Below, one piece after another: positions 11,684 to 48,901 of a stretch of 64,000 bases of DNA. Source of the DNA: Chloroflexota bacterium (GTDB taxonomy: Bacteria > Chloroflexota > Anaerolineae > JAAEKA01); assembly GCA_034717495.1 (NCBI GenBank), contig JAYELL010000001.1, positions 66,649 to 130,648 on the forward strand, given 5' to 3'. Under the pieces are notes generated by a model. That model was not told the origin of the DNA and searched no databases. It saw only the letters and a list, made by a program, of their open reading frames with translations. How positions within the stretch are numbered: position 1 is the first letter of the stretch; each line of letters opens with the position of its first letter. Position numbers and translations under genes: made by a program.

Positions 11684-11923
11684 CACGGTGACACGGCGAC
11701 ACGGTGACATGGCAAATGTGCAGGAGTCGAGGCTGTGCGTAGCCCCCTTTTTGGGTTAGCCGGGAGAGAGACACGGCGACGCGGTGACACGGCGACGCGG
11801 CGACGCGGTGACACGGCGACGCGGAGACGCGGTGACACGGCGATGCGGAGACGCGGTGACACGGCGACGCGGAGACACAGCGACACGGCGACATGCTGAC
11901 ATTCCGACCTGAGGAGGTGACAA
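11684..11923 (+). repeat. long 8-bp-phased GNGACNCG repeat array (about 28 octamers) upstream of the URO-D-like gene
   Basis: gacattccgacatgctgacacggtgacacggcgacacggtgacatggc ... gacacggcgacgcggtgacacggcgacgcggcgacgcggtgacacggcgacgcggagacgcggtgacacggcgatgcggagacgcggtgacacggcgacgcggagacacagcgacacggcgacatgctgacattccgac, then gaggaggtgacaaATG. Confidence 0.6.
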
Positions 11924-31648: not shown

Positions 31649-31933
31649 AATTCTCTCCCTGGTTTGGATGGCGTTGAGGCTTCAGCCGGTTTCGTGTCTG
31701 ACCGACCAAAGCATACTGAACAATTGCCGTTTCGTACATGGATTGCTCCGATTATACCCGCGGCATGCTGATAGCGCAAAAAATCAGTTTCTCAGACCTG
31801 GGTTATTCCCGCAGATAGCGCATAGTCCCTGTGTATTCCCAGGCGGGATTTCATTTGACAGCGCGACACCGCTGTGTTATCATCTCTTTGCAACATCTGT
31901 TCAAGCCTGTTCATCTGTTCAAGTGAGGCGCCG

Positions 31934-32971
31934 ATGCGTTCCGATGCCGACAGGCACACGCTCTTGTACAAGATCGCCAAGGCCTATTACGAGGACGGGC
32001 TCACCCAGCACCAGATCGGTCGACGCTTTAGTCTCTCCCGCGTCAAGGTCTCGCGCCTTTTGCAGGAGGCACGAGATGAACGAGTTGTCCAGATTGCCAT
32101 CGTTTCTTCCATTGACTCCAACGCGGACCTCGAACGTGAACTGGAAGCTCGCTTTGACCTTCTGGAGGCCGTCGTCGTCACCCCTGCGGACTACAGTGCT
32201 CCCGTGATTCTTCAGGAACTGGGTACTGCAGCGGCTAATCATCTGATGCGCTGCCTGCAGGGCAAGGAGATTGTGGCCCTGAGCTGGGGCACTACCCTGC
32301 ATGCCGTGATCGAGGCGCTGCCCGCTCAGAACTGGCCCGATCTGAAGGTCGTGCAGATCCTTGGTGGCGTTGGTGATCCAGAGGTCGAAGTTCATGGCAA
32401 CGATCTCTCCCGCCGGATGGCTCAATCCTTTGGCGCCCAACTTCGTTTCATGCCATCCCCGGGTATCGTTGGCAGCAGGCAAGTGCGCGACGCGTTGATC
32501 GGCGATCCCCAGATTGCGTCAAGCCTGGCATTGGGCCAACGGGCCGACGTGGCGCTGGTAGGCATCGGTGTGCCTATCCCGGGATCGGTGGTCGACCGGG
32601 CAGGTATTCTATCGAAGGATGAGATCGTCGAGTTGGCGAACCTCGCTGCTGTGGGTGACATTGCTCTGCGATTCTTCGACAAAAACGGCCAACCCACCCA
32701 GCACGCGATCAACGATCGTATCGTTGGCCTGGATATCGACCAAATGAGGCGGATACCCCGCAGGATCGGTGTGGCTGGTGGTAGTGACAAACACCAGGCG
32801 ATTGGCGCAGTGCTGCGTGGCGGCCTCGTCAATGTTATCGTGACCGATGAGCGCAGCGCCAGATATCTGCTCACCAGCTCCGGAAAGGCCCCGGATTCAG
32901 CCAACGGGATAGCAGCTCAGGCGACGATTGGCAACACCGTGCGATCGCCTGGCGAACTGGTTCATGGGTGA
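31934..32971 (+). CDS. SorC/DeoR-family sugar-binding transcriptional regulator
   Basis: N-terminal HTH LLYKIAKAYYEDGLTQHQIGRRFSLSRVKVSRLLQEARDERVVQIAI, followed by a ~250-aa sugar-phosphate-binding domain, as in CggR/DeoR(Bsu)/LsrR. Confidence 0.75.
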   Translation: MRSDADRHTLLYKIAKAYYEDGLTQHQIGRRFSLSRVKVSRLLQEARDERVVQIAIVSSIDSNADLERELEARFDLLEAVVVTPADYSAPVILQELGTAAANHLMRCLQGKEIVALSWGTTLHAVIEALPAQNWPDLKVVQILGGVGDPEVEVHGNDLSRRMAQSFGAQLRFMPSPGIVGSRQVRDALIGDPQIASSLALGQRADVALVGIGVPIPGSVVDRAGILSKDEIVELANLAAVGDIALRFFDKNGQPTQHAINDRIVGLDIDQMRRIPRRIGVAGGSDKHQAIGAVLRGGLVNVIVTDERSARYLLTSSGKAPDSANGIAAQATIGNTVRSPGELVHG

Positions 32972-33010
32972 AGGATTATCAGGATAACCTCCTGGAAGGG
33001 TAGTGGATTC

Positions 33011-34567
33011 ATGTCAGATTATCTTCTTGGTCTCGACTATGGCACCGGCGGTGCCAAGGCCTGTATTATCGACCCGGAGGGCAACGTCCTGGGCTTTGCT
33101 TTCGAGGAATATCCTTTCTATCATGACCATCCCGGCTGGTCGGAGCACGATCCCGATCGCTACTGGACTGTCGCCTGCCAAATGATCCAGGAATGCATCT
33201 CGCAGGCTCGCATTCAACCAGCCGAAATCAAGGGGCTTGCAGTTTCTTCCGCCTTGCCTTCCATGGTAATGGTGGACGAGCAGCACCAGCCAATTCATCG
33301 CGCCTACAACCTGATGGATAGGCGTGCAACCCGGGAGGTTGAATGGCTCAAGGAGAATATCGGCGAGCAACGGATCATGGATATCACGGCCAATCGTATC
33401 GAGGATCATCCTGCCCTGGTCAACCTGTTATGGGAAAAGACCAACCGTCCCGAGTCCTATGGGCAGATCTGGAAAGCCCTTACCATCGATGGTTTTATCA
33501 CCCTCAAGTTGACCGGCAGGCCGGTGGTTTGTCACGGCGGCGCGCCCTTCTACGGCGTGGCCTACAACCTGGTCGAGGAGAGCTTCGACCAACAGATGTT
33601 GAACGACATCGGGATCGATGGCAGCCTGATACCGGAGATCCATCGCAGCGAGGAGATCATCGGCGAGGTGACCTCTGCCGCCGCCGCTGAGACGGGCCTG
33701 GCAGCGGGCACGCTGGTCTGCGCCGGACAGGTTGACTTCAATGCCAGTTGCATCGCTGCCGGCATCGTCGACGAAGGCGACATCATGAGCAACCTGGGCA
33801 CGGTTGGCAACTTCGGCGTCATATTCACCGACAAGGCCTTCCCCTATTCACCTGTGGGCCTCTCCATGATTAACCTGGCCTTTACCGTGGACTCGGCCAA
33901 TACCTTGATGACCATTCCCTCGACCACCACCGGCGGCCAGTCGATTCGCTATCTGCGGGACGAATTTTCCAAGTACGAGATCGAGGTGGAGCGGGTGCTG
34001 GGTATCAGTTCGTATGATCTGCTCAATATGCAGGCAGCCGAGGTTCCCTTGGGCAGCGACGGTTTGATCATTCTCCCCTACCTGATGGGTGAACGAACGC
34101 CCATTTGGGATACCACTGCCCGGGGTGTCATCTTCGGTCTCTCGTTGAACCATACCAAGGGCCACATCGTACGTGCCATGATGGAGGCGGTAGCCTTTGC
34201 CCTGTACGACTCCTACCGCCTGATCGAAACATCTGGATTGAAGCTGAACACCCCCATGGTGCTCAACGAGGGTGGCGCGGTCAGCAAGCTCTGGCGCCAG
34301 ATCATTACAGATGTGTTCAACGTGCCCACAGTGCTGGTCAAACGACGGACAGGTGCTCCCTTTGGCGACGCAATCCTTGCCGGGGTGGCTACTGGTGTTT
34401 TCGACGATTATTCAGTTGCGAAGCAGTGGGCAGAATATGTCGACCGCATGGAGCCGATTCCAGGCAACCACCAGCGCTACATGCCTTATTTCGACCTTTA
34501 CAAAGACCTTTATGAACATGTCAAGGAGGATTTCAAAACGTTGGCGAAGCTACGAGGACAGCTATAG
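33011..34567 (+). CDS. FGGY-family carbohydrate kinase (xylulokinase/LsrK-like)
   Basis: [17 protein letters not shown]-terminal motif; FGGY domain 2 ([18 protein letters not shown]); 518 aa. Confidence 0.85.
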
Positions 34568-34584
34568 CAGATGAAAGGAAGAAA

Positions 34585-35403
34585 ATGAGCACCTCCCTCG
34601 GCAAGCAGGTGCGGCTGCACAGGTTGCAGAACCCGCAGTCGGGCCGGATCCTGACGATAGCCATTGACCATGCGCCCAGCTATGGCGTGCTGCCCGGCCT
34701 GGAGGATATCCAGGCGGTGATCGACCGCGTGGCCGCTGGCGGCCCCGACGCGGTCATGCTGATGAAAGGTCCTGCCCAGCGCTGTTTTGCGCCGTATGCA
34801 GGTGATATATCGTTGATACTCAAGTCGTCGACGCTGTCCCCATTCCATCCGACGCAAGACGTTTGGGTGAACCCGGTTGAGGATGCGCTTCGTTTGGGTG
34901 CAGACGCGATTTCCATGGCTCTGACTGTGGGCAGCGAGCAGCAGGCGGCGCTGGTGTCCAACCTGGCAGCGCTGGTACGGGAAGCGGAGCAGGTTGGGCT
35001 GCCCGTGATCGTACACGCCTACCCGAACGGCGAACTGGTGCCGCCAGACCAGATCTATTCGGCGGAACAGGTCAGCTACGCGGCTCGCCTGGGCATGGAG
35101 TTGGGCGTCGACATTGTCAAGACCTTCTACACCGGTTCGGCTGAGAGCTTCGGCACCGTAGTGGAGGCGGCCGCGCCTGCCCTAGTCGTGGCTGCCGGGG
35201 GACCGCGCCTGGATAGCGACGCCGATGTGTTGACTATGGCGTTCGCGGTCAAGGAGGCGGGCGCGGCGGGCCTGACGTTTGGGCGCAACGTGTGGCAGAG
35301 TGACAGCGCCCCATCCACGATCCGCGCGCTGGCGGCCGTGCTGCACGAGGAGGCTTCGGTAGACGAGGCGCTGGCGTTGTTGCCATCACAGGAAAGTGTT
35401 TGA
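34585..35403 (+). CDS. DhnA/FbaB-type class I aldolase family protein (LsrF/ADH-synthase-like)
   Basis: RLHRLQNPQSGRILTIAIDHAPSYG opening and the ~270-aa length match archaeal-type class I FBP aldolase, LsrF and DhnA. Confidence 0.7.
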   Translation: MSTSLGKQVRLHRLQNPQSGRILTIAIDHAPSYGVLPGLEDIQAVIDRVAAGGPDAVMLMKGPAQRCFAPYAGDISLILKSSTLSPFHPTQDVWVNPVEDALRLGADAISMALTVGSEQQAALVSNLAALVREAEQVGLPVIVHAYPNGELVPPDQIYSAEQVSYAARLGMELGVDIVKTFYTGSAESFGTVVEAAAPALVVAAGGPRLDSDADVLTMAFAVKEAGAAGLTFGRNVWQSDSAPSTIRALAAVLHEEASVDEALALLPSQESV

Positions 35404-36290
35404 TCATGCCGCTGGTCAATTTCAGGGAAATCCTGCAGGATGCCACCGATGACCGATACGGTGTGCCATGTCTTCTCGGTGGCAACCTTGAAATGGTCGT
35501 TGGCCAGATCAGGGCAGCAGAGGCATGTAATTCGCCCTTGATCCTCGCCTTCAATCAGGCCGTTACACCTGATGTGCCTATGTCTATCGGTCTGCCGATG
35601 ATTGTCAATGCGGCGCGAGAGGCTGCCGTGCCGGTAGCAACCATCCTGGATCACGGGATGCACCTTGAGCCAGTGGTGCAGGCCATTCACCTGGGAAGTT
35701 CCTCGGTGATGTACGACGGGTCTGGCCTGCCCTTCGAGGAAAATGTGCGACAGACGGCGGAAATCGTGCGGATCGCCCATTCCGTCGGGGTCGGCGTTGA
35801 GGCAGAACTGGGCGGCATAGGTGGCTCGTCACTGGAGGTAGGTGCGGCTGGACCCGAGCCGAGTTTCACCGATCCCGAAATGGCTGCAGAGTTCGTCGAA
35901 AGGACCGGCATCGATGCGCTGGCAGTCTCTTTTGGCAATGCCCATGGCCCTTATCAGGCAGATCCCGAGCTTGAACTGGACAGGGTTAAAAGAATCCGTG
36001 AACTGGTCTCGATCCCGCTGGTGATGCACGGCGCCTCCGGCCTGGTTGACAGCCAGTATCGGGAGATTGTAGAGAGTGGAATCAGCAAGATCAACTATTA
36101 CACAGCCATGGCTCGCGATGCCGCCCGGGATTTACGGGACTTGATGCTTGAGACCGAAGAGAACGGCCTCATTTATCACCACATTATTAAACGATCTATC
36201 GATTTCTATTATCAGGAAACAGAAAGATTACTTGTTGTTTTGGGTTGTGCCGGCAGGATTGCTGCCGGTGAGCGATTCAGGACTTACTGA
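35400..36290 (+). CDS. class II fructose/tagatose-bisphosphate aldolase family protein (GatY/KbaY-like)
   Basis: NFREILQDA..YGVP, SVMYDGSGLPFEENV (class II M(I/L)DGS motif), HGASG; 296 aa. Confidence 0.8.
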   Translation: MIMPLVNFREILQDATDDRYGVPCLLGGNLEMVVGQIRAAEACNSPLILAFNQAVTPDVPMSIGLPMIVNAAREAAVPVATILDHGMHLEPVVQAIHLGSSSVMYDGSGLPFEENVRQTAEIVRIAHSVGVGVEAELGGIGGSSLEVGAAGPEPSFTDPEMAAEFVERTGIDALAVSFGNAHGPYQADPELELDRVKRIRELVSIPLVMHGASGLVDSQYREIVESGISKINYYTAMARDAARDLRDLMLETEENGLIYHHIIKRSIDFYYQETERLLVVLGCAGRIAAGERFRTY

Positions 36291-36302
36291 AGGAAGTTCA
36301 GA

Positions 36303-37601
36303 ATGGAACTCTATGAAAACCTGTCGAAGCTGGAAGCAGCCGGTACGCCGATCCGGGTGGGCCTGGTAGGTTGCGGCCAGATGGGATCGGGCATGGTCCA
36401 TGTCACCAATCAGATGGCCGGCATGAAAACCCGCGCGATCGCCGATATCGATGTCCAACTTCCCATCAAAACCTTCCGCAAGATCGGTGTTCCGGAGTCG
36501 GATATCTGCGTCACAGCCAATCGTGGCGAGGCGCAGGATGCGTTGGCCCAGGGCAAGGTATTGGTGACCGAGGATGCCCTGCTTCTGACCCAGCTGGATG
36601 GCCTCGACAGTATCGTCGAAGCGACAGGATACACGGAGATCGGCGCTCAGGTCGCGTGGCATAGCATCATGAACGCCAAAAACGTAGTGATGCTTAACGT
36701 GGAAACCGATGTGACGGTCGGCGTATACCTTAACGAGTTGGCCAGACAGGTGGGTTGTGTGTACACAGTGGCCAGCGGCGACGAGCCCGGTGTGTGCAAG
36801 ATGTTGTACAACTTTGCCCGCAGTCTTGGCTTCGAAGTGGTATGCCTGGGCAAGGGTAAAAACAACGTCATCGACTACTATGCCACGCCCGATACCTGTC
36901 GCGAGGAAGCCCTCGGCAAGGGCATGAATCCCAAGATGTTGGCGGCATTCAAGGATGGTACCAAGACCATGGTTGAACTGGCTGCCATGTCCAACGCTAC
37001 TGGACTGGTACCCGATGTGCCTGGCACCCATGGCCAGAAGGTCGACCTGCCCGATCTCAACAAGATGCTTGTGCCGGTGAAGGACGGCGGCATCTTGAGC
37101 CAGCCCGGTTGTGTTGAGTACACCACTGGAAAGGTGGCGCCAGGTGTCTTTGCCGTCATTACCTCCCCAGACCGGCGAATTCGTGTCGATATGAAGTTCC
37201 TGGCCATGGGTGATGGTCCCTACTATACGCTGTATCGGCCTTATCATCTGTGCAACGTCGAGACGCCCATCTCCATTGCTGAGGCGGTCATCTACGGTGA
37301 AACAACGCTTGTTTCCAGGGACCTGGTATCAGAGGTGGTTGCCATCGCCAAACGGGATCTGGCGCCCGGAGACGTGGTAGATGACCTGGGAGGCTTCGAT
37401 TTCTTCAACCGTATCTACGCCTACGGGCAGGCTAAGGCGGCCAGGGGCATTCCCATGGGCCTGACGCCGGGCGGCACCGTGCTGAAGTCTATTGCCAAGG
37501 GCGAGATGTTCACTGAGGATAATTTCGCACCCGATTCCAGCCGCTTTGCCTTCAAGTTGCGCACCATTCAGGACGAAATGCTGGCGAGACGTGATTCGTG
37601 A
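36303..37601 (+). CDS. NAD(P)-binding oxidoreductase with C-terminal SAF domain (COG4091, homoserine-dehydrogenase-like)
   Basis: [15 protein letters not shown] Rossmann motif; ~430 aa with a C-terminal SAF-like region. The family assignment is from memory. Confidence 0.55.
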
Positions 37602-37692
37602 AACCTGAAGCGCCGTGCGTGATCCGGTGTGCGCGGGACGCCATACCTGACACGCATCACGCACTAACCAGCATATCTTTGAGAAATTACCT

Positions 37693-38757
37693 ATGACACC
37701 CACTACCATGCAAGCTGTAGTCGTGCGAGCGCCGATGGAATTTGGCGTGGAGGAAGTGCCCCTGCCTCAGGTGGACCCGGGTGGCCTTCTCCTTCAGGTT
37801 GAGGCCTGCGGTCTATGTGGTTCAGACCTGCGCACGTTGAGGGGCGGCCATCGTAAGGTGACCTTTCCCTGGATCATCGGTCACGAGATTTGCGGCACCG
37901 TTGTCGAAACGGGCACAGACTACCGCGGTCCCTGGCAACCCGGTCAGCAGCTTGCCGTAGGGCCCATCGTCTACTGCGGAACCTGCGACTTTTGCCAGGA
38001 TGGGCGATACGAGTTGTGCGAGAACTACCGCGAGATCGCCCAGGCCTGGCCTGGCGGCCTGGCAGATTACATCGCGCTTCCCCCGGAGAGCATTCGTCTC
38101 GGCAACGTTCGGGCAGTGTCCGCAGGAGTCGACCCTGCCTTCGCTGCCATCACCGAGCCTATCTCTTCCTGTCTGAGCGCGCAGGAGAAGGGCCAGGTAG
38201 GCTTGGGCGATACCGTGATGGTCATTGGTTCGGGACCAGTCGGTTGTATCCACATTGCCCTGGCCCGTGCACGCGGTGCCTCGAAGATATTCATTGCCGA
38301 TATCGTCGATGAAAGGCTCAGGCTGGCGGAAGCGTTCGAGCCTGACGCAACGATCAACGTTTCCGAACGCGATCTGGTGGAGGAAGTGCGAAGACTGACC
38401 GGCGGCAAGGGGGCCGATGTGACGGTGACAGCAACCCCGGCGCCTGTTGCCCAGGTCCAGGCTGTCGAACTGACCAGAAAGGGTGGTCGTATTCTACTGT
38501 TCGGTGGTCTACCCAAGGATCGCAGCAAACCCGGCGTGGATATGAATATTGTCCACTACAATGCCTTGCATCTCATCGGCACGACCATTTTTGCTCCCCG
38601 GCATCACCGGCTGGCGGTGCAGTTGGTCGAGTCGGGGCGGTTTCCCATGGACAAACTGGTTACCCACAGGTTTCCACTGTCCGAGTTCAACGCCGGCGCA
38701 ACTATGGCGCTGGAAGGAAAGGTCTTGAAGGCTGTTTTCCTGCCTGGTGTTGGCTGA
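37693..38757 (+). CDS. zinc-dependent medium-chain dehydrogenase (sorbitol/threonine-DH-like)
   Basis: [15 protein letters not shown] with GHEICG zinc ligands; second Zn site [15 protein letters not shown]; GSGPVG NAD motif. Confidence 0.8.
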
Positions 38758-38789
38758 TACCGGCTGTCAAGCAGCTAACTGGTGATTTC

Positions 38790-39881
38790 GTGATCGCAAA
38801 CATTACACAATCTCAGGTTCTCCAACGTCTTCAGGAGCATGGATTGCAGCACACTGTCGTGGAACTCGATGGCGGCGCGCGTATTGTTGTAATGCAGCGG
38901 GGCGGCCGAATTCTGGGCCCATTCCTCCCTGGCGACGGTGGCAGCATTCTCTGGCTCAACGATGTTTGGGCCGACTCCGATGCCTTCAGTGCCTATCTTG
39001 CCGGCAACGAGTGGAACCTGGGTGGTGAACGTGTATGGATCGCACCGGAAATCCAGTTCAGTGTACGCGATCGCTACGATTTCTGGAACACGGTGCAATG
39101 TCCCCCGGCAGTTGATCCGGGAAACTATTCGCTGGATCAGGCGTCAGCGGGCGAGGTCACACTGTGCCAGCGCATGGTGTTGGAGGCCTACAATATTGCC
39201 AGCGGGAGCAAAGAACTGTATCTCAAGCGGCATATCCGGCCAGCAGCCAACCCGTTGCGGGCATTGAGCCAGTTCAAAGAGCTGATGGATGGTGTCGGCT
39301 ACGCGGGCTACGAGCATGCTGTTGAGCTGTCGGAAACGACATCAGATGACATTGTGAGTGAAGGCTGGAGCCTGCTCCAGTTGCATGCGGGTGGTATTCT
39401 GATTATTCCGGCTTCCCCCAAGGTGGAGTACAGTGATTATTTTGACCCTATTGACTCGGATCACCAGACAATTCATCAGGATGCTGGTTATGTGGCCGTT
39501 CGCATCAGCGGCCGGCGGCAATTCAAGGTGGGGTACAAGTCGGCGCACGTGCAGGGGCGACTTGCCTATCTCAGTCGCCTGAACGACAGCCATTTCTACC
39601 TGCTCATCCGCAACTTCTTCAACAACCCTTCGTCACTCTATGCGGAGGAACCACCTCATCTACCGGGTTGCCGAGGCCATTCGATTCATGTCTACAACGA
39701 CGATGGTGATTTCGGCGGCTTTGGCGAACTGGAGGTCATGGCGCAGACGATCGGCGGTGAAACGGGCCGGCGCAGCAGCAGCGAGCAGTTCCTGTTCTGG
39801 CTGTTTGTAGGGCCGGGCGATCGGCTAGAGCTGCTGGCCGAACATCTGTTGGGCGTGCGCTTGATCGTGGACCTGCCCTGA
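38790..39881 (+). CDS. hypothetical protein (363 aa)
   Basis: ORF in-operon between the dehydrogenase and isomerase genes. No motif recognised with confidence. Confidence 0.4.
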   Translation: MIANITQSQVLQRLQEHGLQHTVVELDGGARIVVMQRGGRILGPFLPGDGGSILWLNDVWADSDAFSAYLAGNEWNLGGERVWIAPEIQFSVRDRYDFWNTVQCPPAVDPGNYSLDQASAGEVTLCQRMVLEAYNIASGSKELYLKRHIRPAANPLRALSQFKELMDGVGYAGYEHAVELSETTSDDIVSEGWSLLQLHAGGILIIPASPKVEYSDYFDPIDSDHQTIHQDAGYVAVRISGRRQFKVGYKSAHVQGRLAYLSRLNDSHFYLLIRNFFNNPSSLYAEEPPHLPGCRGHSIHVYNDDGDFGGFGELEVMAQTIGGETGRRSSSEQFLFWLFVGPGDRLELLAEHLLGVRLIVDLP

Positions 39882-39976
39882 TCCCAGTCAGGCTACGGCT
39901 TGAACAGTTGGAATCCACTAACAAATCACCTGCTACTCACAGTGAACCGGACACCTTTCAAAGGAGAAACGATGCG

Positions 39977-41407
39977 ATGAACGTCATGGACAGGAAGACC
40001 ACCTTTGGCCTGATCGTAGGCTCGCGAGGGTTCTTCAATTCGGAACTGGCGGTGCAGGGCCGCAAGGACCTGCTGGCAAAGCTGGACGAACTGGGCTTCA
40101 ACTACGTCATCCCGCCCGAAGATGCCACGCCCAACGGCGTTATCGAAACCTACGCCGATGCCAAGATTTGCGCCGAACTGTTCAAGCAGCGCCGGGATGA
40201 TATCGATGGCGTTGTCGTGGTGCTGCCCAACTTCAGCGACGAGATGGGCGTTGTGTTCACCCTTGATATGGCCAGGCTCGACGTGCCGGTGATGGTGCAG
40301 GCTTGCGACGATGAGGATCCCATGAAGCTGCTCATCGACCAACGGCGGGATTCCTTCTGCGGAAAGATATCGGTCTGCAACAACCTCTACCAGTTCGGTA
40401 TTCCCTTTACCGACACAACCTATCACACCTGCACGATCGGCAGCGATCTCTTTTCGAAGGACCTGGACAGGTTCGCCCGCATCTGCCGGGTCGTAAAGGG
40501 CCTGACCAACATGCGGATCGGCGCCATTGGTGCCCGTCCGACTCCGTTCCACACCTGCCGTTACAGCGAGAAACTGCTCCAGAGCACCGGCGTCACGGTA
40601 GTCACCGTCGATCTTTCCGAAATGATGGCTTCAGCCAATGCGCTACGCCAGGGCGGCGCGCAGGCGGTGACCGACAAGGTGGACCAGATCCGGGCCTATG
40701 GCACCATCCCGGACTATATCCAGGATGAGGCCATCATTCGACAGGCTGCCTGGTCCGTTGCCGTAGAGACTTGGATGGCCGAAAACGAGTGCGATGCCAG
40801 TGCCATCCAATGCTGGACCTCGATCCAGCTCAACTATGGCTGCGCCACCTGTTTGACTATGAGCATGATGGGTGAGAAGTTGATGCCCAGCGCCTGCGAG
40901 GTAGACATCACTGGAGCGGTGTCCATGTATGCCTTGGTACTGGCCTCGGGCAATGCCGCTGGCTTTCTGGACTGGAACAACAATTACGGTGAAGACCGGG
41001 ACATGTGCATCAACACTCATTGCAGTAACTATCCCAAGAGCTTTATCGGCGAGACTCCGGAGATCTCCAACCTGGACGTGATCGGCGCGAGCGTTGGGGC
41101 TGACAAATCCTTCGGCGCTGTCAAGGGCCAGGTGGTTGCCGGGCCGATGACCTTTTTCCGCATGTCTACCGATGATACCCGGGGCGTGATCAAGTCGTAT
41201 GTGGGCGAAGGTGAATTCACCGATGATCCCACCAATATTCAGGGCGGCTCTGCCGTCTGCCGGATCGGCAACCTGCAGCAGATGATGAAGTATGTCTGCA
41301 AGAACGGCTTCGAGCACCACGTTGCCCAGGTACGCGGCAATTGGGCCGACGTCCTGGAGGAAGCGATCGCGACCTACCTGGGTTGGGATCTGTACCGGCA
41401 CCGGTAG
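39977..41407 (+). CDS. L-fucose isomerase-like family protein (short FucI/AraA-like)
   Basis: FGLIVGSRGFFNSELAVQGRKDLLAKLDELGFNYV...DGVVVVLPNFSDEMGV pattern of the short L-fucose-isomerase-like family; ~475 aa. Start at the ATG preceded by aaaggag. Confidence 0.6.
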   Translation: MNVMDRKTTFGLIVGSRGFFNSELAVQGRKDLLAKLDELGFNYVIPPEDATPNGVIETYADAKICAELFKQRRDDIDGVVVVLPNFSDEMGVVFTLDMARLDVPVMVQACDDEDPMKLLIDQRRDSFCGKISVCNNLYQFGIPFTDTTYHTCTIGSDLFSKDLDRFARICRVVKGLTNMRIGAIGARPTPFHTCRYSEKLLQSTGVTVVTVDLSEMMASANALRQGGAQAVTDKVDQIRAYGTIPDYIQDEAIIRQAAWSVAVETWMAENECDASAIQCWTSIQLNYGCATCLTMSMMGEKLMPSACEVDITGAVSMYALVLASGNAAGFLDWNNNYGEDRDMCINTHCSNYPKSFIGETPEISNLDVIGASVGADKSFGAVKGQVVAGPMTFFRMSTDDTRGVIKSYVGEGEFTDDPTNIQGGSAVCRIGNLQQMMKYVCKNGFEHHVAQVRGNWADVLEEAIATYLGWDLYRHR

Positions 41408-41555: not shown

Positions 41556-43061
41556 ATGATGAGCAAGAGCGATCTAAATCGACGCCAATTCCTGCGCTAC
41601 AGCGCCATCGCTGGTGCGGGAGTGGCCGCGGCTGCCTGTGCACAACCTGCAGCTCCACCGGCAGCGCAGCCGGTAGAACCTGAGGCTGAAGCGCCGGCGG
41701 CTGCTCCTGAAGCGGAGGCCCCTGCTGCCGAGGAAGTGACGCTGGATGTCATGTCCCTCGCAGAGTACGAGGGGCCCTACCGGGAGATATGGAACATCTT
41801 CGAGGCCGGCCATCCGGGCATCAAGATCAATGTGTTCTCGATCAACGAGGACACGGCTGCTGCCTACGAGGCCAAGGTTGCCGGTGGTTACCTGGCCGCT
41901 ATCGAGCTGACCCAGGAGATGCAGATCTTCTTCGACAAAAACAACTACGAAATGGCCATCAACCTGGGCGAGCTGGACTTCCCCTGGTGGGATCGCTGGC
42001 AGTTCGATGTCAAGAACATCTGGGCAGATCTGCACGGCCTGCCCGGACCGAGGTCCCTGGACGTCTTCCAGGGTTTTGTGATGACCTGGCAGTACAACCA
42101 GGAACTCATGGAGCAGTCCGGCCTGGATCCCCATACCGACGTCAAGTCATGGGATGATCTGAAGAAATGGCTGGGAGATGGCGCCGAGTGGGTTGCCAAG
42201 ACCGACGGCGTGGACTGGTTCTACAACCAGGCCTGGCACAATTGGGTCTTCGGCAATAACTACATGGATGCCCTGCCCCTGGCCTTCGCCGATGGTCAGC
42301 GCGATCGCCAGGTCGATTGCTGGCTGGGTCGGACCAAGTTCAATGCGGAGGATTCGCCCTATCGCCATGCCTACGAGTTCTTCCTCGCGGCCAATGACGA
42401 AGGTTGGATGCCGCCCAGCATGTGGACCCGCCAGTGGGAGGGCGACATGGAAGCCTCCTACATCGCCGGCAACTCCGTCATGATGTTGCACGGCCCCTGG
42501 GTGTGGGACAAGGCCCTGGCCGCCGGTTCCGACTTCGCTGTCAACGACATGCAGGAAGGCTTACCGGTCACACCGCCCGCTGAGGGACAGGTTCCGTGGA
42601 TGCAGAGCGCACTGCCGCCTAACATCGACAACCAGTGGTTCCTGCGAATCGGCAACGAAGATACCCCCCACTGGGCACAGACCCAGGAGGCCTGGAACTG
42701 GTTCTGGAGCCCCGAGGCTGTGCCCTTCAAGGCTCAGGCCGAAGGGCGCTGGCCGCTGTATGACCTGGATGAACCGCTCGAACTGCAAGGACCGCAGTTT
42801 GTGCATGTCCTCAGTCAGATCGGCACACCCGGTGGAATCTGGGAAGATGCTCAGTTCGAGCAGAACCCGACCGGGAACCTGATGGCAAGCCCTTATCGCC
42901 TCAAGGGTTCCAAGGGTGTCTGGGACTGGGAGTCAAACAGCAACAACGAGGTGTTCGCCGACGTGTTGCAGGGCAAGATCACCGTTCAGCAAGCTCTGGA
43001 CATTGCCCAGCGCAACTGGGAAGAAAGCTTCGAGATTCCGGAAGAGGTCACCAACGGCTGA
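41556..43061 (+). CDS. ABC transporter extracellular solute-binding protein (CUT1 sugar type) with Tat/lipoprotein signal
   Basis: NRRQFLRYSAIAGAGVAAAAC signal with lipobox Cys, a Pro/Ala/Glu-rich linker, and a ~450-aa SBP body. RBS aggagg. Confidence 0.8.
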   Translation: MMSKSDLNRRQFLRYSAIAGAGVAAAACAQPAAPPAAQPVEPEAEAPAAAPEAEAPAAEEVTLDVMSLAEYEGPYREIWNIFEAGHPGIKINVFSINEDTAAAYEAKVAGGYLAAIELTQEMQIFFDKNNYEMAINLGELDFPWWDRWQFDVKNIWADLHGLPGPRSLDVFQGFVMTWQYNQELMEQSGLDPHTDVKSWDDLKKWLGDGAEWVAKTDGVDWFYNQAWHNWVFGNNYMDALPLAFADGQRDRQVDCWLGRTKFNAEDSPYRHAYEFFLAANDEGWMPPSMWTRQWEGDMEASYIAGNSVMMLHGPWVWDKALAAGSDFAVNDMQEGLPVTPPAEGQVPWMQSALPPNIDNQWFLRIGNEDTPHWAQTQEAWNWFWSPEAVPFKAQAEGRWPLYDLDEPLELQGPQFVHVLSQIGTPGGIWEDAQFEQNPTGNLMASPYRLKGSKGVWDWESNSNNEVFADVLQGKITVQQALDIAQRNWEESFEIPEEVTNG

Positions 43062-43176
43062 CATTCCTGCGTTCGTGGTGGGTGGCCTGGTGTCACCAAC
43101 CGGTCACCCACCACATTCCTGAGGCGTGGTAAGCCTTACGATTCGCGTACCAGGCAGTTCGCCAGCGGAGATGCTT

Positions 43177-44130
43177 ATGGCACCAACAACCGGACAGCAG
43201 TCCAACGGGATTACGGATAAATCAGGCAATCAACCCAGGATAAGCAAGCTGGAACGACGGCGTATTCTTCGTGATTGGGCCTTCATCACGCCGCAGCTCT
43301 TTCTTTTCGTCCTATTGACGATTGTGCCCTTCTTCGTCGCCATCCCGATCCTGTTCACCGACATGTCCCAGTTTAACGATCCAGCGATCAATCCGGTTGG
43401 ATTGCGCAATTTCACGGCAATTTTCGATAATCCCAGTGTGCAACGTGACTATTTCCCGGCGCTGCGACGCACCCTTATCTTTGTGGTCTTTAATTATACG
43501 ACGGTATATATCTTTGGATTGTCGCTGGCATTGCTCATGTACGAGGTTGGTTTCCGGGGCGGATTCTTCACCATCGTCTATCTGCCACTCATGGTGTCGG
43601 GTCTGGCGGTTGGTTACATGGCCGTGATGCTCTTCAGCCAGGAAACCGGAACGGCAAACCTGTTGCTTCAGGAAGTTGGGTTGTTGAAAAAACCGATTGA
43701 TATCTTTTCTGCCGAGGGGACTGCCTTTATCTTGCCGGGCCTGGTTGGCTGGCGATACGCCGGCTACAACATGGCGATTTTTCTGGCTGGGCTTTTGGCG
43801 ATTCCCAAGGAAACCATCGAGGCATCCATCGTAGACGGCGCGAGTTACTGGCAGCGCCTCTGGAAGGTCTATTTTCCCCAGATGCTGCCATCCTTTGTGC
43901 TGGCCACGACAATGTGTTTGATCGGCTCCTTCGCCGTTTTCGACGAACTGGTGGCCATGGGTGCTCTTTACGTCAATCCAGAGGCCAAGCTGTTAAGCAT
44001 TCTGTTCTTCACCTATGGGTTTCAGGTTGAACGGCTGGCCATGGGTATGACACTGGCAGTCGAGACCTTCCTGCCCCTGGTGGTTCTTGGTGTCGCTCTG
44101 CAGCGACTGCAGCGACGGCTGCAATACTAA
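43177..44130 (+). CDS. ABC transporter permease (MalF/UgpA-like)
   Basis: 6 TM segments; EAA-loop region (AIPKETIEASIVDGAS). Confidence 0.8.
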   Translation: MAPTTGQQSNGITDKSGNQPRISKLERRRILRDWAFITPQLFLFVLLTIVPFFVAIPILFTDMSQFNDPAINPVGLRNFTAIFDNPSVQRDYFPALRRTLIFVVFNYTTVYIFGLSLALLMYEVGFRGGFFTIVYLPLMVSGLAVGYMAVMLFSQETGTANLLLQEVGLLKKPIDIFSAEGTAFILPGLVGWRYAGYNMAIFLAGLLAIPKETIEASIVDGASYWQRLWKVYFPQMLPSFVLATTMCLIGSFAVFDELVAMGALYVNPEAKLLSILFFTYGFQVERLAMGMTLAVETFLPLVVLGVALQRLQRRLQY

Positions 44131-44150
44131 CAGCGAGGAGATCAGTTGCC

Positions 44151-45269
44151 ATGTCAGGCTCTGCTACTGCTTCGGATCAGCGATCCATTCGGCAACCCAT
44201 GTTGTCCTCTACCAATCGCAAACGACTCGTTCGGATACTTGCCGTCACGGTGATGCTAGTCTATACTCTCCTCACATTGTTTCCCTTTTACACACTTTTT
44301 ATCCGGTCGTTCGTCAGCACCAAGGACTCGACTGATCTCCACCTTTGGATCCCGGAGGCGGATGAAGTAAATTTGGACGCCCAGGTCGGTAACCTGGCGG
44401 TGTTCTACGATCTCGACCTCAAGGACCTGAAGGAGGCCTTCGGTATTCCGCAAACGGAATTCCTGATGGCGCGTACCTCGCTGCGCCAAATCGGTGAGAG
44501 GTACGACGTTCCTGAGGCACAAATCCGAGACTTCTTTGCGGGATTCTATACCTTCAACGGCTGGAAAACCTTGCTAACGGGCGAATTGTATGGCACCAGC
44601 TTCTGGGGCGCACTGTTCAGAACGCTTATTGTGACGGCCACCAGTCTTGCCCTGGGCATAGTCCTGTCAATATTTACCGGGTATGGCCTGGCAGGGTTGA
44701 GACGCAAGGATCAGATGCTTGTCTACAATCTATACCTGCTGCAGATGGTTATCCCAGCCATGCTTATCTTATTGCCTCAGTTTTTGATGATTCAGTGGTT
44801 CGCCAAGCTGATCCCCGGTTATGGCGATCCCGGAACCACGCGTCAAGCGCTGCAGCTTGGCTCGATTGTGCTCATCAACATCAAGGGCACTGCCCTATCG
44901 ACCATGATTCTTACGGCAGCCATCTCCGGTATTCCCAAGGAACTGGAGGACTCGGCCCAGATCGACGGTGCCAGCAGTATGCAGTACATTCGTTACATCC
45001 TGTTACCGCTGTTGAAGGTGCCAATCGTCAGTCTGATTGTTATTATGTTGCCCCTGATCTATAACCAGTTCCTTGAGCCCTACGTGTATCTGGACCCCGC
45101 CAACTCAACCCTTTTGCCCTTCACCCAGAGCGCCGTGGGTCAATTTTCGACCAACTTCCAACTCATCTACTCCGCTATCTTCGCCTCGGTGGTGCCGTTA
45201 GTGATTGTTTATCTGCTTTTCCGCAGCTTCTTCGTGGAGGGTGTGATGGCGGGGGCAATCAAAGGATAG
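44151..45269 (+). CDS. ABC transporter permease (MalG/UgpE-like)
   Basis: TM profile; EAA motif (SGIPKELEDSAQIDGAS). Confidence 0.8.
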   Translation: MSGSATASDQRSIRQPMLSSTNRKRLVRILAVTVMLVYTLLTLFPFYTLFIRSFVSTKDSTDLHLWIPEADEVNLDAQVGNLAVFYDLDLKDLKEAFGIPQTEFLMARTSLRQIGERYDVPEAQIRDFFAGFYTFNGWKTLLTGELYGTSFWGALFRTLIVTATSLALGIVLSIFTGYGLAGLRRKDQMLVYNLYLLQMVIPAMLILLPQFLMIQWFAKLIPGYGDPGTTRQALQLGSIVLINIKGTALSTMILTAAISGIPKELEDSAQIDGASSMQYIRYILLPLLKVPIVSLIVIMLPLIYNQFLEPYVYLDPANSTLLPFTQSAVGQFSTNFQLIYSAIFASVVPLVIVYLLFRSFFVEGVMAGAIKG

Positions 45270-45272
45270 CAT

Positions 45273-46922
45273 ATGCCGAGAGGCAAACCCCAACGCGTCG
45301 TCTTTCAGCCCAATACCTATCGCGGCTTCCAGCGCGGAGCTAACCAGATTGTCAATGCAGTGCGTCCTACATTGGGCCCGCGCTCGCGCACCGTGGTGAT
45401 TCAGCGAGAATTGGACGACAAGACCCCCGAGATGCTGGATGACGGCGGCACCATTGTGAAGCGAATCATCGCGCTTGCTGACCGGGACGAGGATGTGGGC
45501 GCCATGTTCGTTCGCGAGATGCTCTGGCGTTTACATGATGAGGTGGGAGATGGCACAGCCGCCGCCGCCGTGCTGTTCCAGTCGATCTATAACCAGGGCA
45601 TTCGTTACCTGGCTTCCGGCGGTAACGCCCGGATATTGGAGAAGCACCTGACGGAAGGACTCCAGATCATACTGGACCAACTGGGCGGGATGACCGAGCC
45701 GGTATCCGGCAAGCAGCAGTTGGCCCACCTGGCCGAAACGATCTGCTACGATCCGGCCATGGCCAGGCTACTGGGTGAGATATTTGACATAATCGGCGAG
45801 TTCGGAAGGCTCGAGATCCGCAAAGGGCGGACCCGGGATATGCGGCGTGAGTATGTGGAAGGGATGTACTGGGAGCGCGGCCTGATGTCCCGCCAGATGA
45901 TCACCGATCACGCCAGGACGCGCAGCGAACTGCAGAACCCCCATATTCTGATCAGTGATTTGCAGATAGATGATCCCGCGCAATTGCTGCCGTTACTGGA
46001 GATGGCGAAACGGGAAAACATCAAGGGACTGCTGATCGTCGCGGGCAAGATCAGCGACAACGCGCTCTCCATTCTGTTGGCAAATCGGCAAGAGGAGGGA
46101 TTCCAACCGGTTGCTGTCACGACGCCTGGCTATGGGGTGGAAGCGCAGCTTTGGGCCCTGGAAGACCTGGCTATCCTGACCGGTGGTCGTTCCTTCATCC
46201 AGGTGGCGGGAGATACCTTTGACGGTGTTCAACCCGAGGATCTGGGCAACGCCCGGCGCGCCTGGGCAGATTTGAAGAACTTCGGCATCATCGGCGGTGG
46301 CGGCGGCGCCAGGGCGTTGCGTAATCACATTGCTACCGTGCGCGCCTCTTATGATAACACGAAAAACCTGGTGTTGGTCGATAAGCTGAGAGAGCGGATC
46401 GGTAAGTTGCTGGGCGGATCGGCAACGCTATGGGTTGGCGCCAATACGGAATTGGAAGTGGATTTTCGAAAGGCAGTGGCCGACCGGACCGCGGCGGCCA
46501 TGCGTACCGCCATGCTCGACGGAATCGTTCCTGGAGGGGGCGTTGCCTTGTTGGCCTGTCGCCCCGCTCTCCGGGAGCGATTGCAGCAAAGCGAGAGCGT
46601 CGACGAACGAGCAGCCTTCCAAATATTGATCAAGGCACTGGAGGCACCGATTCGTGCCATTCTGCAGAACGCCGGGCTCGACGCAAGCGACGTGATGGCC
46701 GACATCCGGCTGGCCGGAAATGGCTACGGATTCGATGTGACGACTGAGACTGTAGTCAACATGAAGGAGGCTGGCATCGTCGACGCGACCGCCGTGCAAA
46801 AGGCAGCTGTCTTTTCAGCCGTTTCCGGTGCAGCTCTGGCCCTGACGGTCGATGTTATCGTCCACCACAGGCAGCCTGAACGGCAGATCAAGCGCGAGCC
46901 TGCCACGAGAAAGCGCCTCTGA
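45273..46922 (+). CDS. divergent GroEL/Cpn60-family protein (chaperonin paralog) with altered nucleotide-binding loop
   Basis: Collinear with GroEL over its full length: TLGPRSRTVVI (TLGPKGRNVVL), GDGTAAAAVLFQSI (GDGTTTATVLAQAI), WERGLMS (FDRGYLS), TPGYGVEAQ..LAILTGG (APGFGDRRK..IATLTGG), VPGGGVAL (VAGGGVAL), C-terminal VDATAVQKAAVFSAVSGAAL. The phosphate-binding Thr triplet reads AAA, and there is no GGM tail. No groES is adjacent; the start is 4 nt after the permease stop. Confidence 0.75.
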   Translation: MPRGKPQRVVFQPNTYRGFQRGANQIVNAVRPTLGPRSRTVVIQRELDDKTPEMLDDGGTIVKRIIALADRDEDVGAMFVREMLWRLHDEVGDGTAAAAVLFQSIYNQGIRYLASGGNARILEKHLTEGLQIILDQLGGMTEPVSGKQQLAHLAETICYDPAMARLLGEIFDIIGEFGRLEIRKGRTRDMRREYVEGMYWERGLMSRQMITDHARTRSELQNPHILISDLQIDDPAQLLPLLEMAKRENIKGLLIVAGKISDNALSILLANRQEEGFQPVAVTTPGYGVEAQLWALEDLAILTGGRSFIQVAGDTFDGVQPEDLGNARRAWADLKNFGIIGGGGGARALRNHIATVRASYDNTKNLVLVDKLRERIGKLLGGSATLWVGANTELEVDFRKAVADRTAAAMRTAMLDGIVPGGGVALLACRPALRERLQQSESVDERAAFQILIKALEAPIRAILQNAGLDASDVMADIRLAGNGYGFDVTTETVVNMKEAGIVDATAVQKAAVFSAVSGAALALTVDVIVHHRQPERQIKREPATRKRL

Positions 46923-46937
46923 GGGAAGCAGCTCGTT

Positions 46938-47882
46938 ATGACTAACGAAACCCAACTCCAGAATTACGTTCACTTGCTTGTCGTCTCCCCAGACTTTGCA
47001 GCCGACAGCACTTGCTTTGCCGCTCGGAATTCGGGTCTCCTGCGATCCACTGATGGCGGCCGTAGTTGGCAGGATGCCTATGAATCGATGGACCTCCAGA
47101 GCCAGCTGCCGACGTCAGCCGTTGCGCTCTCTCCCGATTTTCAGCGTGATGGGCACCTCTTTGCCGGCGCGCCCGGTGGCATTCTGCGATCCCTGGATCG
47201 GGGCGATACCTGGCAGGTAGCCCTCCTTGGCTCTCCCCCTCCCTTCGTGTCAGATCTGGCTGTGTCACCCAACTACAGGCGCGATGGCACGCTGTTTGCC
47301 GCGACTCTCGATGATGGCGTCTTTCGCTCCGCAGATCGCGCAACGAGCTGGGCATCATGGAATTTTGGCCTGCTTGATTTGGCCGTGATGGCACTGGCAA
47401 TTTCCCCCGGTTATACCGACGACGAGACTCTCTACGCTGCAACGGAAACGGGGATCTTTCGCAGCACCAACGGGGGGCGTGCCTGGCGCGAGCTGGCTTT
47501 TCCCACCGATCTTGCACCTGTTCTCCGCCTGGCCATATCACCCGATTTCGCCGAGGATAAAACGATCTTCGCCGGCACAGAATTGAATGGTTTGTTCCGC
47601 TCCAGGGATTCTGGTCAGACATGGTTCCCCCTGGGTCAGGATGAGCTGGCAGGCGCCATCAATGGCATCGTGCTTTCCCCTCAATATCCGGAAGACCCGT
47701 CGTTACTTGTGCTGCGGGGGGACTCTGTCATGGTCTCGCGCGATGACGGCGAATCCTGGGAGGCGCGATCGCTCGATCTGACTCCCCAAGGGGTTGTCTC
47801 TGCGGTGGCCGCTCCCTGGGGTTTCCATCCTTCGGCACCCCTGCTGCTTGGTTTGATCGGCGGCGAGCTCCTGCGGCTTTGA
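46938..47882 (+). CDS. BNR/Asp-box repeat beta-propeller protein (Ycf48/sialidase-like fold)
   Basis: Six SxDxGxTW-type repeats: STDGGRSW, SLDRGDTW, SADRATSW, STNGGRAW, SRDSGQTW, SRDDGESW. Confidence 0.65.
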   Translation: MTNETQLQNYVHLLVVSPDFAADSTCFAARNSGLLRSTDGGRSWQDAYESMDLQSQLPTSAVALSPDFQRDGHLFAGAPGGILRSLDRGDTWQVALLGSPPPFVSDLAVSPNYRRDGTLFAATLDDGVFRSADRATSWASWNFGLLDLAVMALAISPGYTDDETLYAATETGIFRSTNGGRAWRELAFPTDLAPVLRLAISPDFAEDKTIFAGTELNGLFRSRDSGQTWFPLGQDELAGAINGIVLSPQYPEDPSLLVLRGDSVMVSRDDGESWEARSLDLTPQGVVSAVAAPWGFHPSAPLLLGLIGGELLRL

Positions 47883-47883
47883 C

Positions 47884-48768
47884 CAGTTGCCTGCCGGGCA
47901 GCGGCCTCTCTTGGGCCGCGTTTAGGGTAACGATTTGGCTGGCGTTTTCGCCGATCTCGGTGCCCATGACGTGGGTGCCGTGGCTGGGGAAGCCTGGATA
48001 GGCGCCAACCGGGAAAGGAGACGGTGTACCAGAGACACTGGCCAGGCTGCGGGCATCCCACCAGTTGTAGTCATGGTCAAAGGGACCGGACAGCGTGCCA
48101 CTCTGGTTGCCTCGATACTGGCGCACCAGGGCCTCGTGGCTGTAGCGAACGCCCGTATCGATATTGGCTGCAACGATACCCTCGCCGCGAACGCTGTAGG
48201 TGTTCCATACCTGATCGGCGCCGATTTTGGCCACACGCCAGGCAAGCGCTTCGGAGTTTCCCGGGATAGCTTTTGTTGGCTCGATAACGGGATTGGGTGC
48301 CTGCACCCTGGGTTCGGCGATAATTTCCCTTACTTCCGGATAGGTGGCAAGGGCATTGGCTGCCTGCCGGTCCCCCTGAACCACGATCACGTTGGCGATC
48401 CAGTAGGGCTTTAAGTATGAAACCGTGCCAGCCAGGGCTTCGGCTTGCAGCGCCTACATTATTATTCTCCGTTGGCTGCTTTCCGCTGTGTCCCGCAGGG
48501 TGTCCTACACGAACTGGCCCCGGGCTGCCCAATCGTCGATCTCTTTGGCCCGACTCAGATTGGCCCGTGCATTCATGATCACGAAGAACCGCGCCTGGCC
48601 ACTTTCTGATGTGGCAATTGCCTCGATGAGCGTGCTGTCGACTGGGGCCGCATGGGCAGACGGGAGAAGGCCTGTCGGACTCGTCAACGGCATTCGAGAG
48701 CCATAAAATGGGATCAGGAAGATCACCGTCATCGCCGAAAGGAGAGCGACAATTCTGCCAAGCGTCAT
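47884..48768 (-). pseudogene. subtilisin-like (S8) serine peptidase remnant: signal peptide, propeptide and Asp/His motifs present, frameshifted, 3' half missing
   Basis: ORF 48505-48846(-) encodes the signal peptide MTLGRIVALLSAMTVIFLIPF after RBS ggagg. A different frame (47728-48390) carries S8 motifs NIDTGV (Asp) and HGTHVMGT (His), then degenerates. The Ser motif region would fall inside the BNR gene, so the gene is truncated. Confidence 0.55.
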
Positions 48769-48901
48769 GAGCACCTCCTGGTGCGGGCATGGGGACGCGC
48801 TGAGCGGAAATCTGACCTTAGGATGTTTGTTCGCGCGTCCTGACAACGGGGCATTCTAACCCAGAAAATTCAGGGCAGGCAAAGGAACAATAGAGTTTCT
48901 C

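Follow-up and report, generated by a model that had tools for sequence, protein, structure and literature searches.

Specialised or multiple type I chaperonins have been listed for Actinobacteria, Firmicutes, Cyanobacteria, Chlamydiae and α-Proteobacteria, the Chloroflexi not being among them (PMC5904260). Chlamydial GroEL2 and GroEL3, divergent paralogs without groES or heat-shock regulation, are presumed to have specialised roles (PMC5904260). Two other GroEL-like proteins, MmoG (soluble methane monooxygenase) and MimG, the mycobacterial binuclear-iron monooxygenase chaperonin-like protein, each serve one specific enzyme, which cannot be functionally expressed without them (PMC7994243). Here we describe a GroEL-like gene, and the β-propeller gene that follows it, in a 64-kb stretch of the Chloroflexota contig JAYELL010000001.1 (positions 66,649 to 130,648; hereafter the window). 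The two genes travel together across a large clade in which the catalytic site of the GroEL-like protein appears to have been rebuilt, and on balance we favour a reading in which the first protein serves the second. A search of the open-access literature, most subscription journals lying outside it, found no description of the clade or of the GroEL–propeller pair, nor of any specialised GroEL combining an invariant replacement of Asp398 by Arg, a basic cavity and tail, and a β-propeller in place of GroES; this conserved two-gene module of Chloroflexota is apparently undescribed.

Like MmoG and MimG, the window protein is a GroEL homolog without a GroES of its own inside a catabolic gene cluster; those two sit in monooxygenase clusters, however, whereas here the setting is a sugar ATP-binding cassette (ABC) operon or a stand-alone pair with a propeller neighbour, and the comparison is one of gene context only. 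Against the models for chlamydial GroEL2 and GroEL3 (NF038370 and NF038369) the protein scores 77.2 and 133.2 bits, respectively, where the cut-off is 600, and both phylum and partner differ. Membership of the group II or group III chaperonins (thermosome, CCT) was considered and rejected, the matches reaching 24-65 bits against cut-offs of 400-800 and covering only the C-terminal equatorial part. Eukaryotic CCT/TRiC, a group II chaperonin, is tied to WD40 seven-bladed propeller clients, and BBS6, BBS10 and BBS12 are chaperonin-like proteins of group II with a degenerate ATP site. Both offer an analogy only: the protein here comes from group I and has no homology to them beyond the superfamily.

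The GroEL-like protein and its catalytic site

The initial annotation described the product as a divergent GroEL paralog collinear with GroEL itself, and so it proves. Pfam Cpn60_TCP1 (PF00118) matches residues 27-532 at 150.8 bits against a gathering score of 34.3, the NCBIfam GroEL models cover residues 7-538, and alignment with solved GroELs runs without gaps through the catalytic regions. Identity to E. coli GroEL, the reference sequence of which was verified against PDB chains, is 29-33 % for the protein and its family (32 % for the window protein in the tblastn comparison), and the score against the GroEL equivalog model TIGR02348 (372.1 bits) lies under the cut-off of 582.1. The sole NCBIfam GroEL subfamily cut-off to be passed belongs to NF009487, the loosest of these models (389.5 versus 352 bits). 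An AlphaFold2 (AF2) model with a mean predicted local distance difference test score (pLDDT) of 88.6 has the GroEL fold. It superimposes on GroES-bound GroEL and Hsp60 subunits with template modelling (TM) scores of 0.85-0.88 and root mean square deviations of 2.6-3.4 Å; for apo rings the TM score is around 0.60. This likeness to the GroES-bound state was not taken as a sign of a locked conformation, since AlphaFold is possibly biased towards that state.

Compared with canonical GroEL/Cpn60 (PDB codes 1AON and 1KP8), then, the protein is collinear throughout and of the same fold, retaining the scaffold, the hinges, the R197–E386 pair and a partly hydrophobic groove, but it differs in the substitutions D398R, K51D, T90A and T93A (with T91A in addition), in a basic isoelectric point (pI), in the absence of a GGM tail and of groES and the CIRCE operator, and in having a propeller partner. 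The phosphate-binding loop does read GDGTAAAAVLF, as first noted (Table 1). Within it D93 and T95 preserve Asp87 and Thr89, while A96, A97 and A99 stand in place of Thr90, Thr91 and Thr93. A more telling change is the Arg at the position of Asp398, a residue that the initial annotation had singled out for checking along with Asp87 and Thr89-91. Canonical GroEL has both Asp52 and Asp87 at its Mg/water site and the window protein keeps the two, the former as D57.

How far these features are shared was assessed in a table of 120 close homologs aligned with E. coli GroEL. Position 398 is Arg and positions 90 and 93 are Ala in all 120, and position 51 is Asp in 119. Asp52 has become Asn in 85 of the sequences, and Thr91 is mostly kept, Ala being found there, as in the window protein, in only four. 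The family loop consensus is GDGTATAAVLF, against GDGTTTATVLA in GroEL. Retained motifs include T30-L-G-P, G86-D87-G88-T89 (D87 being invariant), G414-G-G, I493 and D495. The nucleotide pocket therefore looks intact, the hydrolytic residues having been rebuilt with strict conservation. Nearly all of some 125 more distant full-length representatives likewise carry D51, A90, A93 and R398, position 398 being sometimes Gln, Lys or Asn. The description of the loop as degenerate consequently does not hold: to judge from these alignments the loop has been remodelled into a signature that a large clade conserves strictly, which is no mark of decay, T91A alone being a rarity of the window protein.

What the rebuilt site might do can be gauged from E. 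coli, where the GroEL mutant D398A binds ATP normally with 3 % of the wild-type ATPase activity (PMC3326522). The altered catalytic site, with its invariant D398R, K51D, T90A and T93A, predicts impaired ATP hydrolysis, and the earlier proposal of an impaired ATPase stands as a prediction of this kind. Co-variation consistent with a D51–R398 salt bridge is weak: Fisher tests, uncorrected for phylogeny and to be read as hints only, give p = 0.058 for the association of acidic 51 with basic 398 and p = 0.002 for acidic 398 where position 51 is not acidic.

Other surfaces of the protein divide into those kept and those transformed. The hinge glycines G192, G374, G375 and G410 are invariant in the family, the R197–E386 bridge between subunits persists, and the apical groove is still hydrophobic (L199, S201, M204, F/L234, L237, I259, L263 and A264). 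The acidic cavity wall is gone, with D253 replaced by Lys, E255 by Ser, and D359 and D361 by hydrophobic residues. Median family values of pI 8.3 and net charge +2 compare with pI 4.85 and net charge -19 for E. coli GroEL. At the C-terminus no Gly-Met-rich tail is present in the window protein, bearing out the earlier claim that the GGM repeats are absent, and its place is taken by the basic sequence HHRQPERQIKREPATRKRL; the family consensus here is ...KRKRL, the last 20 residues having a median net charge of +4 versus -1 in E. coli. GGM tails are absent too from nearly all of the distant representatives. Bacteria with multiple chaperonins, by contrast, are stated to retain the GGM tail on one copy or more (PMC11978752).

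The clade to which the protein belongs is, on the sequences gathered, a large GroEL-derived one and nearly confined to Chloroflexota where its members are named. A search of 5.8 billion proteins yielded more than 120 clusters (90 % identity level) of proteins around 550 amino acids long and 57-72 % identical to the window protein; those with names derive from metagenome-assembled genomes of Chloroflexota/Anaerolineae and are annotated 'chaperonin GroEL'. When 1.84 billion cluster representatives (50 % identity level) were searched exhaustively with HMMER, the 150 best matches listed had 33-54 % identity; the full-length ones among them are the distant representatives aligned above. Scanning one genome per GTDB species with the pattern GDGTATA[AT][VI] confirmed at least 231 loci, a lower bound because the window's own protein would escape the pattern. 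The best 80 of the 231 are nearly all from Chloroflexota (two stray bins are named otherwise) and include Anaerolineae, Caldilineaceae, Ardenticatenia, Chloroflexia, Thermoflexales, Thermomicrobiales and Roseiflexaceae.

The β-propeller partner and the gene neighbourhood

The constant partner of the GroEL-like gene is the propeller gene, not the sugar operon. Genome synteny was assessed in 87 loci, of which 79 had enough sequence and 75 were distinct; these loci share ancestry and are not phylogenetically independent, a limit that applies to all the counts and to the permease-density ratio below. In 65 of the 79 loci, corresponding to 63 of the 75 distinct ones, the next gene downstream is a propeller ortholog (45-71 % identity) with the same orientation. 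The reciprocal test, starting from 80 metagenome loci chosen by the propeller alone, found the GroEL-like gene directly upstream in 52 of the 58 with enough upstream sequence. Synteny with the BNR protein in relatives, which the initial annotation had suggested inspecting, is therefore conserved, and this excludes the scenario raised there in which the gene would simply be a second housekeeping groEL without such synteny.

As first reported, the gene is not accompanied by groES, which as a rule lies upstream of a groEL gene. Searches of the 64-kb window by tblastn with E. coli GroES and GroEL queries revealed no groES and no second groEL, and across 167 related loci (1.76 Mb) no GroES was found and no canonical GroEL nearby. 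A search for the CIRCE operator allowing up to four mismatches over 1.3 Mb of loci gave one weak, distant and irrelevant match, with none in the window or near the pair, and heat-shock control through CIRCE/HrcA was rejected on these grounds. Such results bear on whether the protein is nonetheless an ordinary second housekeeping GroEL whose GroES is encoded elsewhere. The database name 'chaperonin GroEL' and the passing of the NF009487 cut-off would suit that idea, as would the many bacterial groEL copies without an adjacent groES (PMC5904260). It is nevertheless very improbable, given the failed equivalog cut-off and low identity to canonical GroEL, the clade-wide Arg at position 398, the loss of both GGM tail and acidic cavity at a pI of 8.3, the lack of CIRCE and the presence of a conserved partner that is not GroES.

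The partner itself has no signal peptide and so should be cytoplasmic. Its sequence contains six full repeats of the form SPxF…D.T.FA…G.FRS.DGG.SW and a partial closing blade, and the AF2 model (pLDDT 92.5) has seven blades. In the PDB the model comes nearest to single propeller domains from GH74 xyloglucanases, to Ycf48 and to WD40 propellers (such as β'-COP, RACK1 and Gβ5), at 11-17 % identity. A GH74 xyloglucanase was rejected as an identification: those enzymes have two tandem seven-bladed propellers in around 700 amino acids or more, there is one here, and the TM score normalised to GH74 is only 0.31-0.36. Ycf48/HCF136 is likewise a seven-bladed BNR-type propeller of around 310-330 amino acids (TM scores of about 0.7 to PDB 2XBG, 5OJ3 and 5OJR), and JGI calls the propeller family 'photosystem II stability/assembly factor-like'. 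However, the score against the Ycf48/HCF136 equivalog is only 43.4 bits against a cut-off of 326 and the identity 14-16 %; Ycf48/HCF136 is lumenal or periplasmic and found in oxygenic phototrophs whereas the present protein is cytoplasmic and from Chloroflexota, so that the fold is the only common feature. The propeller's hosts are for the most part of non-phototrophic lineages.

The propeller family is strongly acidic (median pI 4.3, net charge -21). Its most conserved stretch outside the repeats is the WNFGLLDL loop between blades 3 and 4, of which N142, F143, G144, L145, D147 and L148 are invariant in 114 propeller sequences; a second conserved non-repeat feature, NGGRAWRE, occupies residues 178-185 (blades 3-4). 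The WNFGLLDL loop is a candidate docking motif, put forward on the strength of its conservation. The propeller gene starts 15 nt past the GroEL-like stop, agreeing with the spacing first given. The two genes share a reading frame, being separated by the TGA stop and five codons (46920-46937), probably a coincidence because the gap differs at other loci.

The initial annotation considered the GroEL-like gene hard-wired into a carbohydrate operon, a view that survives in part. A link to sugar transporters is real and recurrent, occurring in one subclade and again in a distant subfamily with a different transporter. A permease is, however, directly upstream in only some 30 of the 79 genome loci, and in 9 of 33 taken from metagenomes, and the transporter-linked copies form essentially one subclade in a crude neighbour-joining tree rooted on E. 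coli only. At other loci the flanks of the pair are highly diverse, and in many cases the pair is solitary, set off by an upstream gap. A further subclade has cytoplasmic sulfatases before the pair and a seven-transmembrane (7TM) histidine kinase and a creatininase-family gene after it. In the distant subfamily (41-42 % identical; three loci) the gene order is SBP_bac_1, permease, permease, a membrane protein of 235 amino acids, GroEL-like and propeller, with LacI, GH116 or GH172 genes as neighbours. Its CUT1 transporter is only 23-24 % identical to that of the window, and the GroEL-like protein (42.5 %) and propeller (40 %) have diverged in step.

These neighbourhoods are the proper ground for weighing a role like that of MmoG or MimG, in which the GroEL-like protein would be dedicated to folding or assembling one of the enzymes or transporter components that the sugar operon encodes, with the propeller as a further client or an unrelated passenger. 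It would account for the 3-nt gap after the permease with no intervening terminator, for the order DRL–ADH–DUF6786–isomerase–solute-binding protein–permease–permease–GroEL-like, which is kept down to 48 % identity, and for a density of permease genes 4.7-fold higher within 4 kb of the pair than at 4-10 kb. The different CUT1 transporter of the distant subfamily, beside GH116 and GH172 genes, and the sulfatases that precede another subclade point the same way, and MmoG and MimG themselves provide precedent. Yet over half of the loci have neither a transporter nor a common enzyme beside the pair; with the transporter-linked copies essentially one subclade, much of the synteny could stem from a single insertion; and the propeller gene is the sole one that generally travels with the GroEL-like gene. 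We regard such a role as unlikely, though deserving of serious consideration.

How the pair may work

The explanation we favour, with a rough probability of 0.55, is that the GroEL-like protein is an ATP-binding, poorly hydrolysing chaperonin-like holder or assembly partner dedicated to the propeller. The two would work as a two-protein module: the GroEL-like protein may still form a GroEL-type ring, which is predicted to bind ATP and to hydrolyse it slowly or never and which would make no use of GroES. Instead of acting as a general folding cage, it would hold or assemble the very acidic propeller, whether as obligate client or as stable partner. The charges of the two families are complementary (net +2 versus -21). 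In the window the module would constitute the last two genes of a SorC-regulated operon for sugar catabolism and ABC uptake, and would therefore be made on sugar import and not on heat shock.

Several observations count against this explanation. The loss of hydrolysis is extrapolated from E. coli mutants, and Arg398 with Asp51 could give another catalytic arrangement. The contacts between rings survive only in part: R452 and S463 are present, but V464 has become Glu or Asp and E434 Pro. The propeller gene is not directly downstream in 12 of the 75 distinct loci and so is not strictly obligatory in cis, and no natural fusion of the two genes was found among the representatives and loci. Adjacency and charge complementarity, which suggest contact between the proteins, are both indirect. 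Finally, the recurrent placement behind sugar ABC permeases is left unexplained and hints at a role in transport or sugar metabolism.

A more elaborate and distinctly less probable arrangement has the propeller docking on or in a basic, GroES-independent heptameric ring, either as a lid or co-factor in the place of GroES or as a held subunit. A pseudo-sevenfold acidic propeller would then sit on a heptameric ring with ATP binding, not hydrolysis, as the switch; contact with the apical groove would be made through the invariant WNFGLLDL loop, and in Chloroflexota the whole assembly would be linked to the uptake of sugar.

It is also conceivable, if decidedly doubtful, that no chaperone function is involved, and that an ATP-binding, non-hydrolysing scaffold and the propeller make up a regulatory or structural complex, for instance an ATP- or ligand-sensing accessory of CUT1 transporters. 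A site rebuilt under strict conservation, altered cavity chemistry, repeated association with two unrelated CUT1 systems and transporter operons devoid of an ABC ATPase gene would all be in keeping with a scaffold. CUT1 operons, however, are often without their own ATPase and share one encoded elsewhere, so that its absence says little; many loci have no transporter nearby; and the conserved hinges, apical groove and R197–E386 pair argue that chaperonin-type movements and client binding have been kept.

If the pair does form a complex, a chaperonin fold would have been repurposed with nucleotide binding uncoupled from hydrolysis, and bacteria would offer a parallel to the eukaryotic relationship between CCT chaperonin and propeller. 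There is also a practical side. The clade is concealed by the annotation 'chaperonin GroEL', pipelines miscalling its genes as housekeeping groEL, and such miscalls matter for surveys that use cpn60 as a marker and wherever the metabolism of Chloroflexota is reconstructed.

The sugar operon of the window and further loci

The genes upstream are those given by the initial annotation, namely a SorC regulator, FGGY kinase, aldolases and ABC transporter, and have the corresponding profile matches (Table 1). The GroEL-like gene begins at the fourth nucleotide past the stop of the second permease gene, as also stated there, leaving a gap of 3 nt (CAT), and from the permease gene through to the propeller gene no convincing terminator was seen. 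That the gene is transcribed together with those of the transporter, earlier rated almost certain, is on this evidence plausible. The top promoter-like site (11/12) is at 31855-31883, ahead of the SorC gene.

Table 1. Features of the window discussed in the text
Feature	Position	Strand	Basis or remarks
Sugar-catabolic genes	31874..41407	+	SorC-type regulator, FGGY kinase, DeoC-type aldolase, class II aldolase, DRL-type oxidoreductase, Zn-ADH, DUF6786, fucose-isomerase-like
Solute-binding lipoprotein, 501 aa, Tat signal and lipobox, no Pfam domain match	41556..43061	+	sequence
ABC permease 1, BPD_transp_1, MalF/UgpA-like	43126..44130	+	profile match
ABC permease 2, BPD_transp_1, MalG-like, 372 aa	44151..45269	+	profile match
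GroEL-like paralog, 549 aa, three-domain chaperonin fold	45273..46922	+	ATG start, open reading frame and profile matches
D56-D57, equivalents of K51-D52	45438..45443	+	alignment
Phosphate-loop equivalent GDGTAAAAVLF (E. coli G86-A96), residues 92-102	45546..45578	+	alignment
Arg405, at position of catalytic Asp398 (helix M) of GroEL	46485..46487	+	alignment
Basic C-terminal tail HHRQPERQIKREPATRKRL, in place of GGM repeats	46863..46919	+	ends ...RKRL
Cytoplasmic seven-bladed BNR/Asp-box β-propeller, 314 aa, pI 4.4	46938..47882	+	Pfam BNR, Sortilin-Vps10, PSII_BNR; AF2
WNFGLLDL, residues 141-148, loop between blades 3 and 4	47358..47381	+	most conserved non-repeat stretch of propeller

The BPD_transp_1 match in permease 2 begins only at residue 169, and the protein therefore has a long N-terminal extension relative to MalG-type permeases of around 300 residues (such as that of locus L168). 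A twin-arginine signal, then a lipobox-like AAAC and a linker rich in Pro, Ala and Glu can be recognised in the solute-binding protein; its orthologs (59-84 % identity) lie upstream of the permeases in related operons. The transporter operons contain no gene for an ABC ATPase (window 41556-45269; L001, L002, L004, L006, L168 and L169), and the GroEL-like gene holds the slot where one might be expected. The missing gene probably reflects the habit of CUT1 systems of sharing an ATPase.

As regards the substrate of the pathway, apionate-lactonase (Apionate_lact_N/M/C) and GHMP-kinase genes adjoin the sugar operon in L004 (14520-17537) and L006 (19331-21653). These neighbours hint that the compound handled is apiose or another branched pentose, or else a sugar acid related to them. 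The fucose-isomerase-like gene of the window (39908-41407) has a weak likeness to sulfoquinovose isomerase, scoring 108 bits against a cut-off of 700.

Searches of the window with Rfam at gathering thresholds yielded no RNA element, a PADLOC search for defence systems gave no match for either the GroEL-like protein or the propeller, and the PHROGs search returned generic groEL only. Past the propeller gene, a region of about 1 kb (47883-48901) contains no convincing gene and is blank in Rfam; its open reading frames (47935-48414 on the forward strand, 47728-48390 and 48077-48790 on the reverse) have no Pfam match, the one of 237 codons, rich in Arg, Gly and Pro, looking like an off-frame artefact.

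At the sulfatase-linked loci (L065, L070, L072, L074, L076, L080 and L083) one or two sulfatase genes without signal peptide occupy positions -1 to -3, and HisKA_7TM kinase, creatininase-family and PAC2-family genes follow the pair in the same set. The additional membrane protein of the distant subfamily, 230-237 amino acids in length, is polytopic and has no Pfam match (L168 5268-5975, L169 5281-5994, L170 444-1136). A convergent gene after the propeller encodes 222-240 amino acids with a lipoprotein-like signal (L168 8642-9310, L169 9542-10264 and L170 3776-4447, all on the reverse strand).

Candidate fusions between GroEL-like protein and propeller were rejected on inspection. Six long representatives (625-1081 amino acids) are tandem or partly duplicated canonical GroELs, with GDGTTTAT and an E-D pair, and fall outside the clade. 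Five of them, of 830-1081 amino acids (P0194, P0209, P0227, P0248 and P0259), consist of a canonical GroEL module repeated once, with GDGTTTAT in each half, and are either true tandem fusions or run-on gene calls. An open reading frame of 769 codons in L027 is no fusion but an out-of-frame read-through in a frameshifted assembly. The propeller gene at that locus (11650-12600 on a 1.1-Mb contig) is split across two frames, most likely by an assembly indel.

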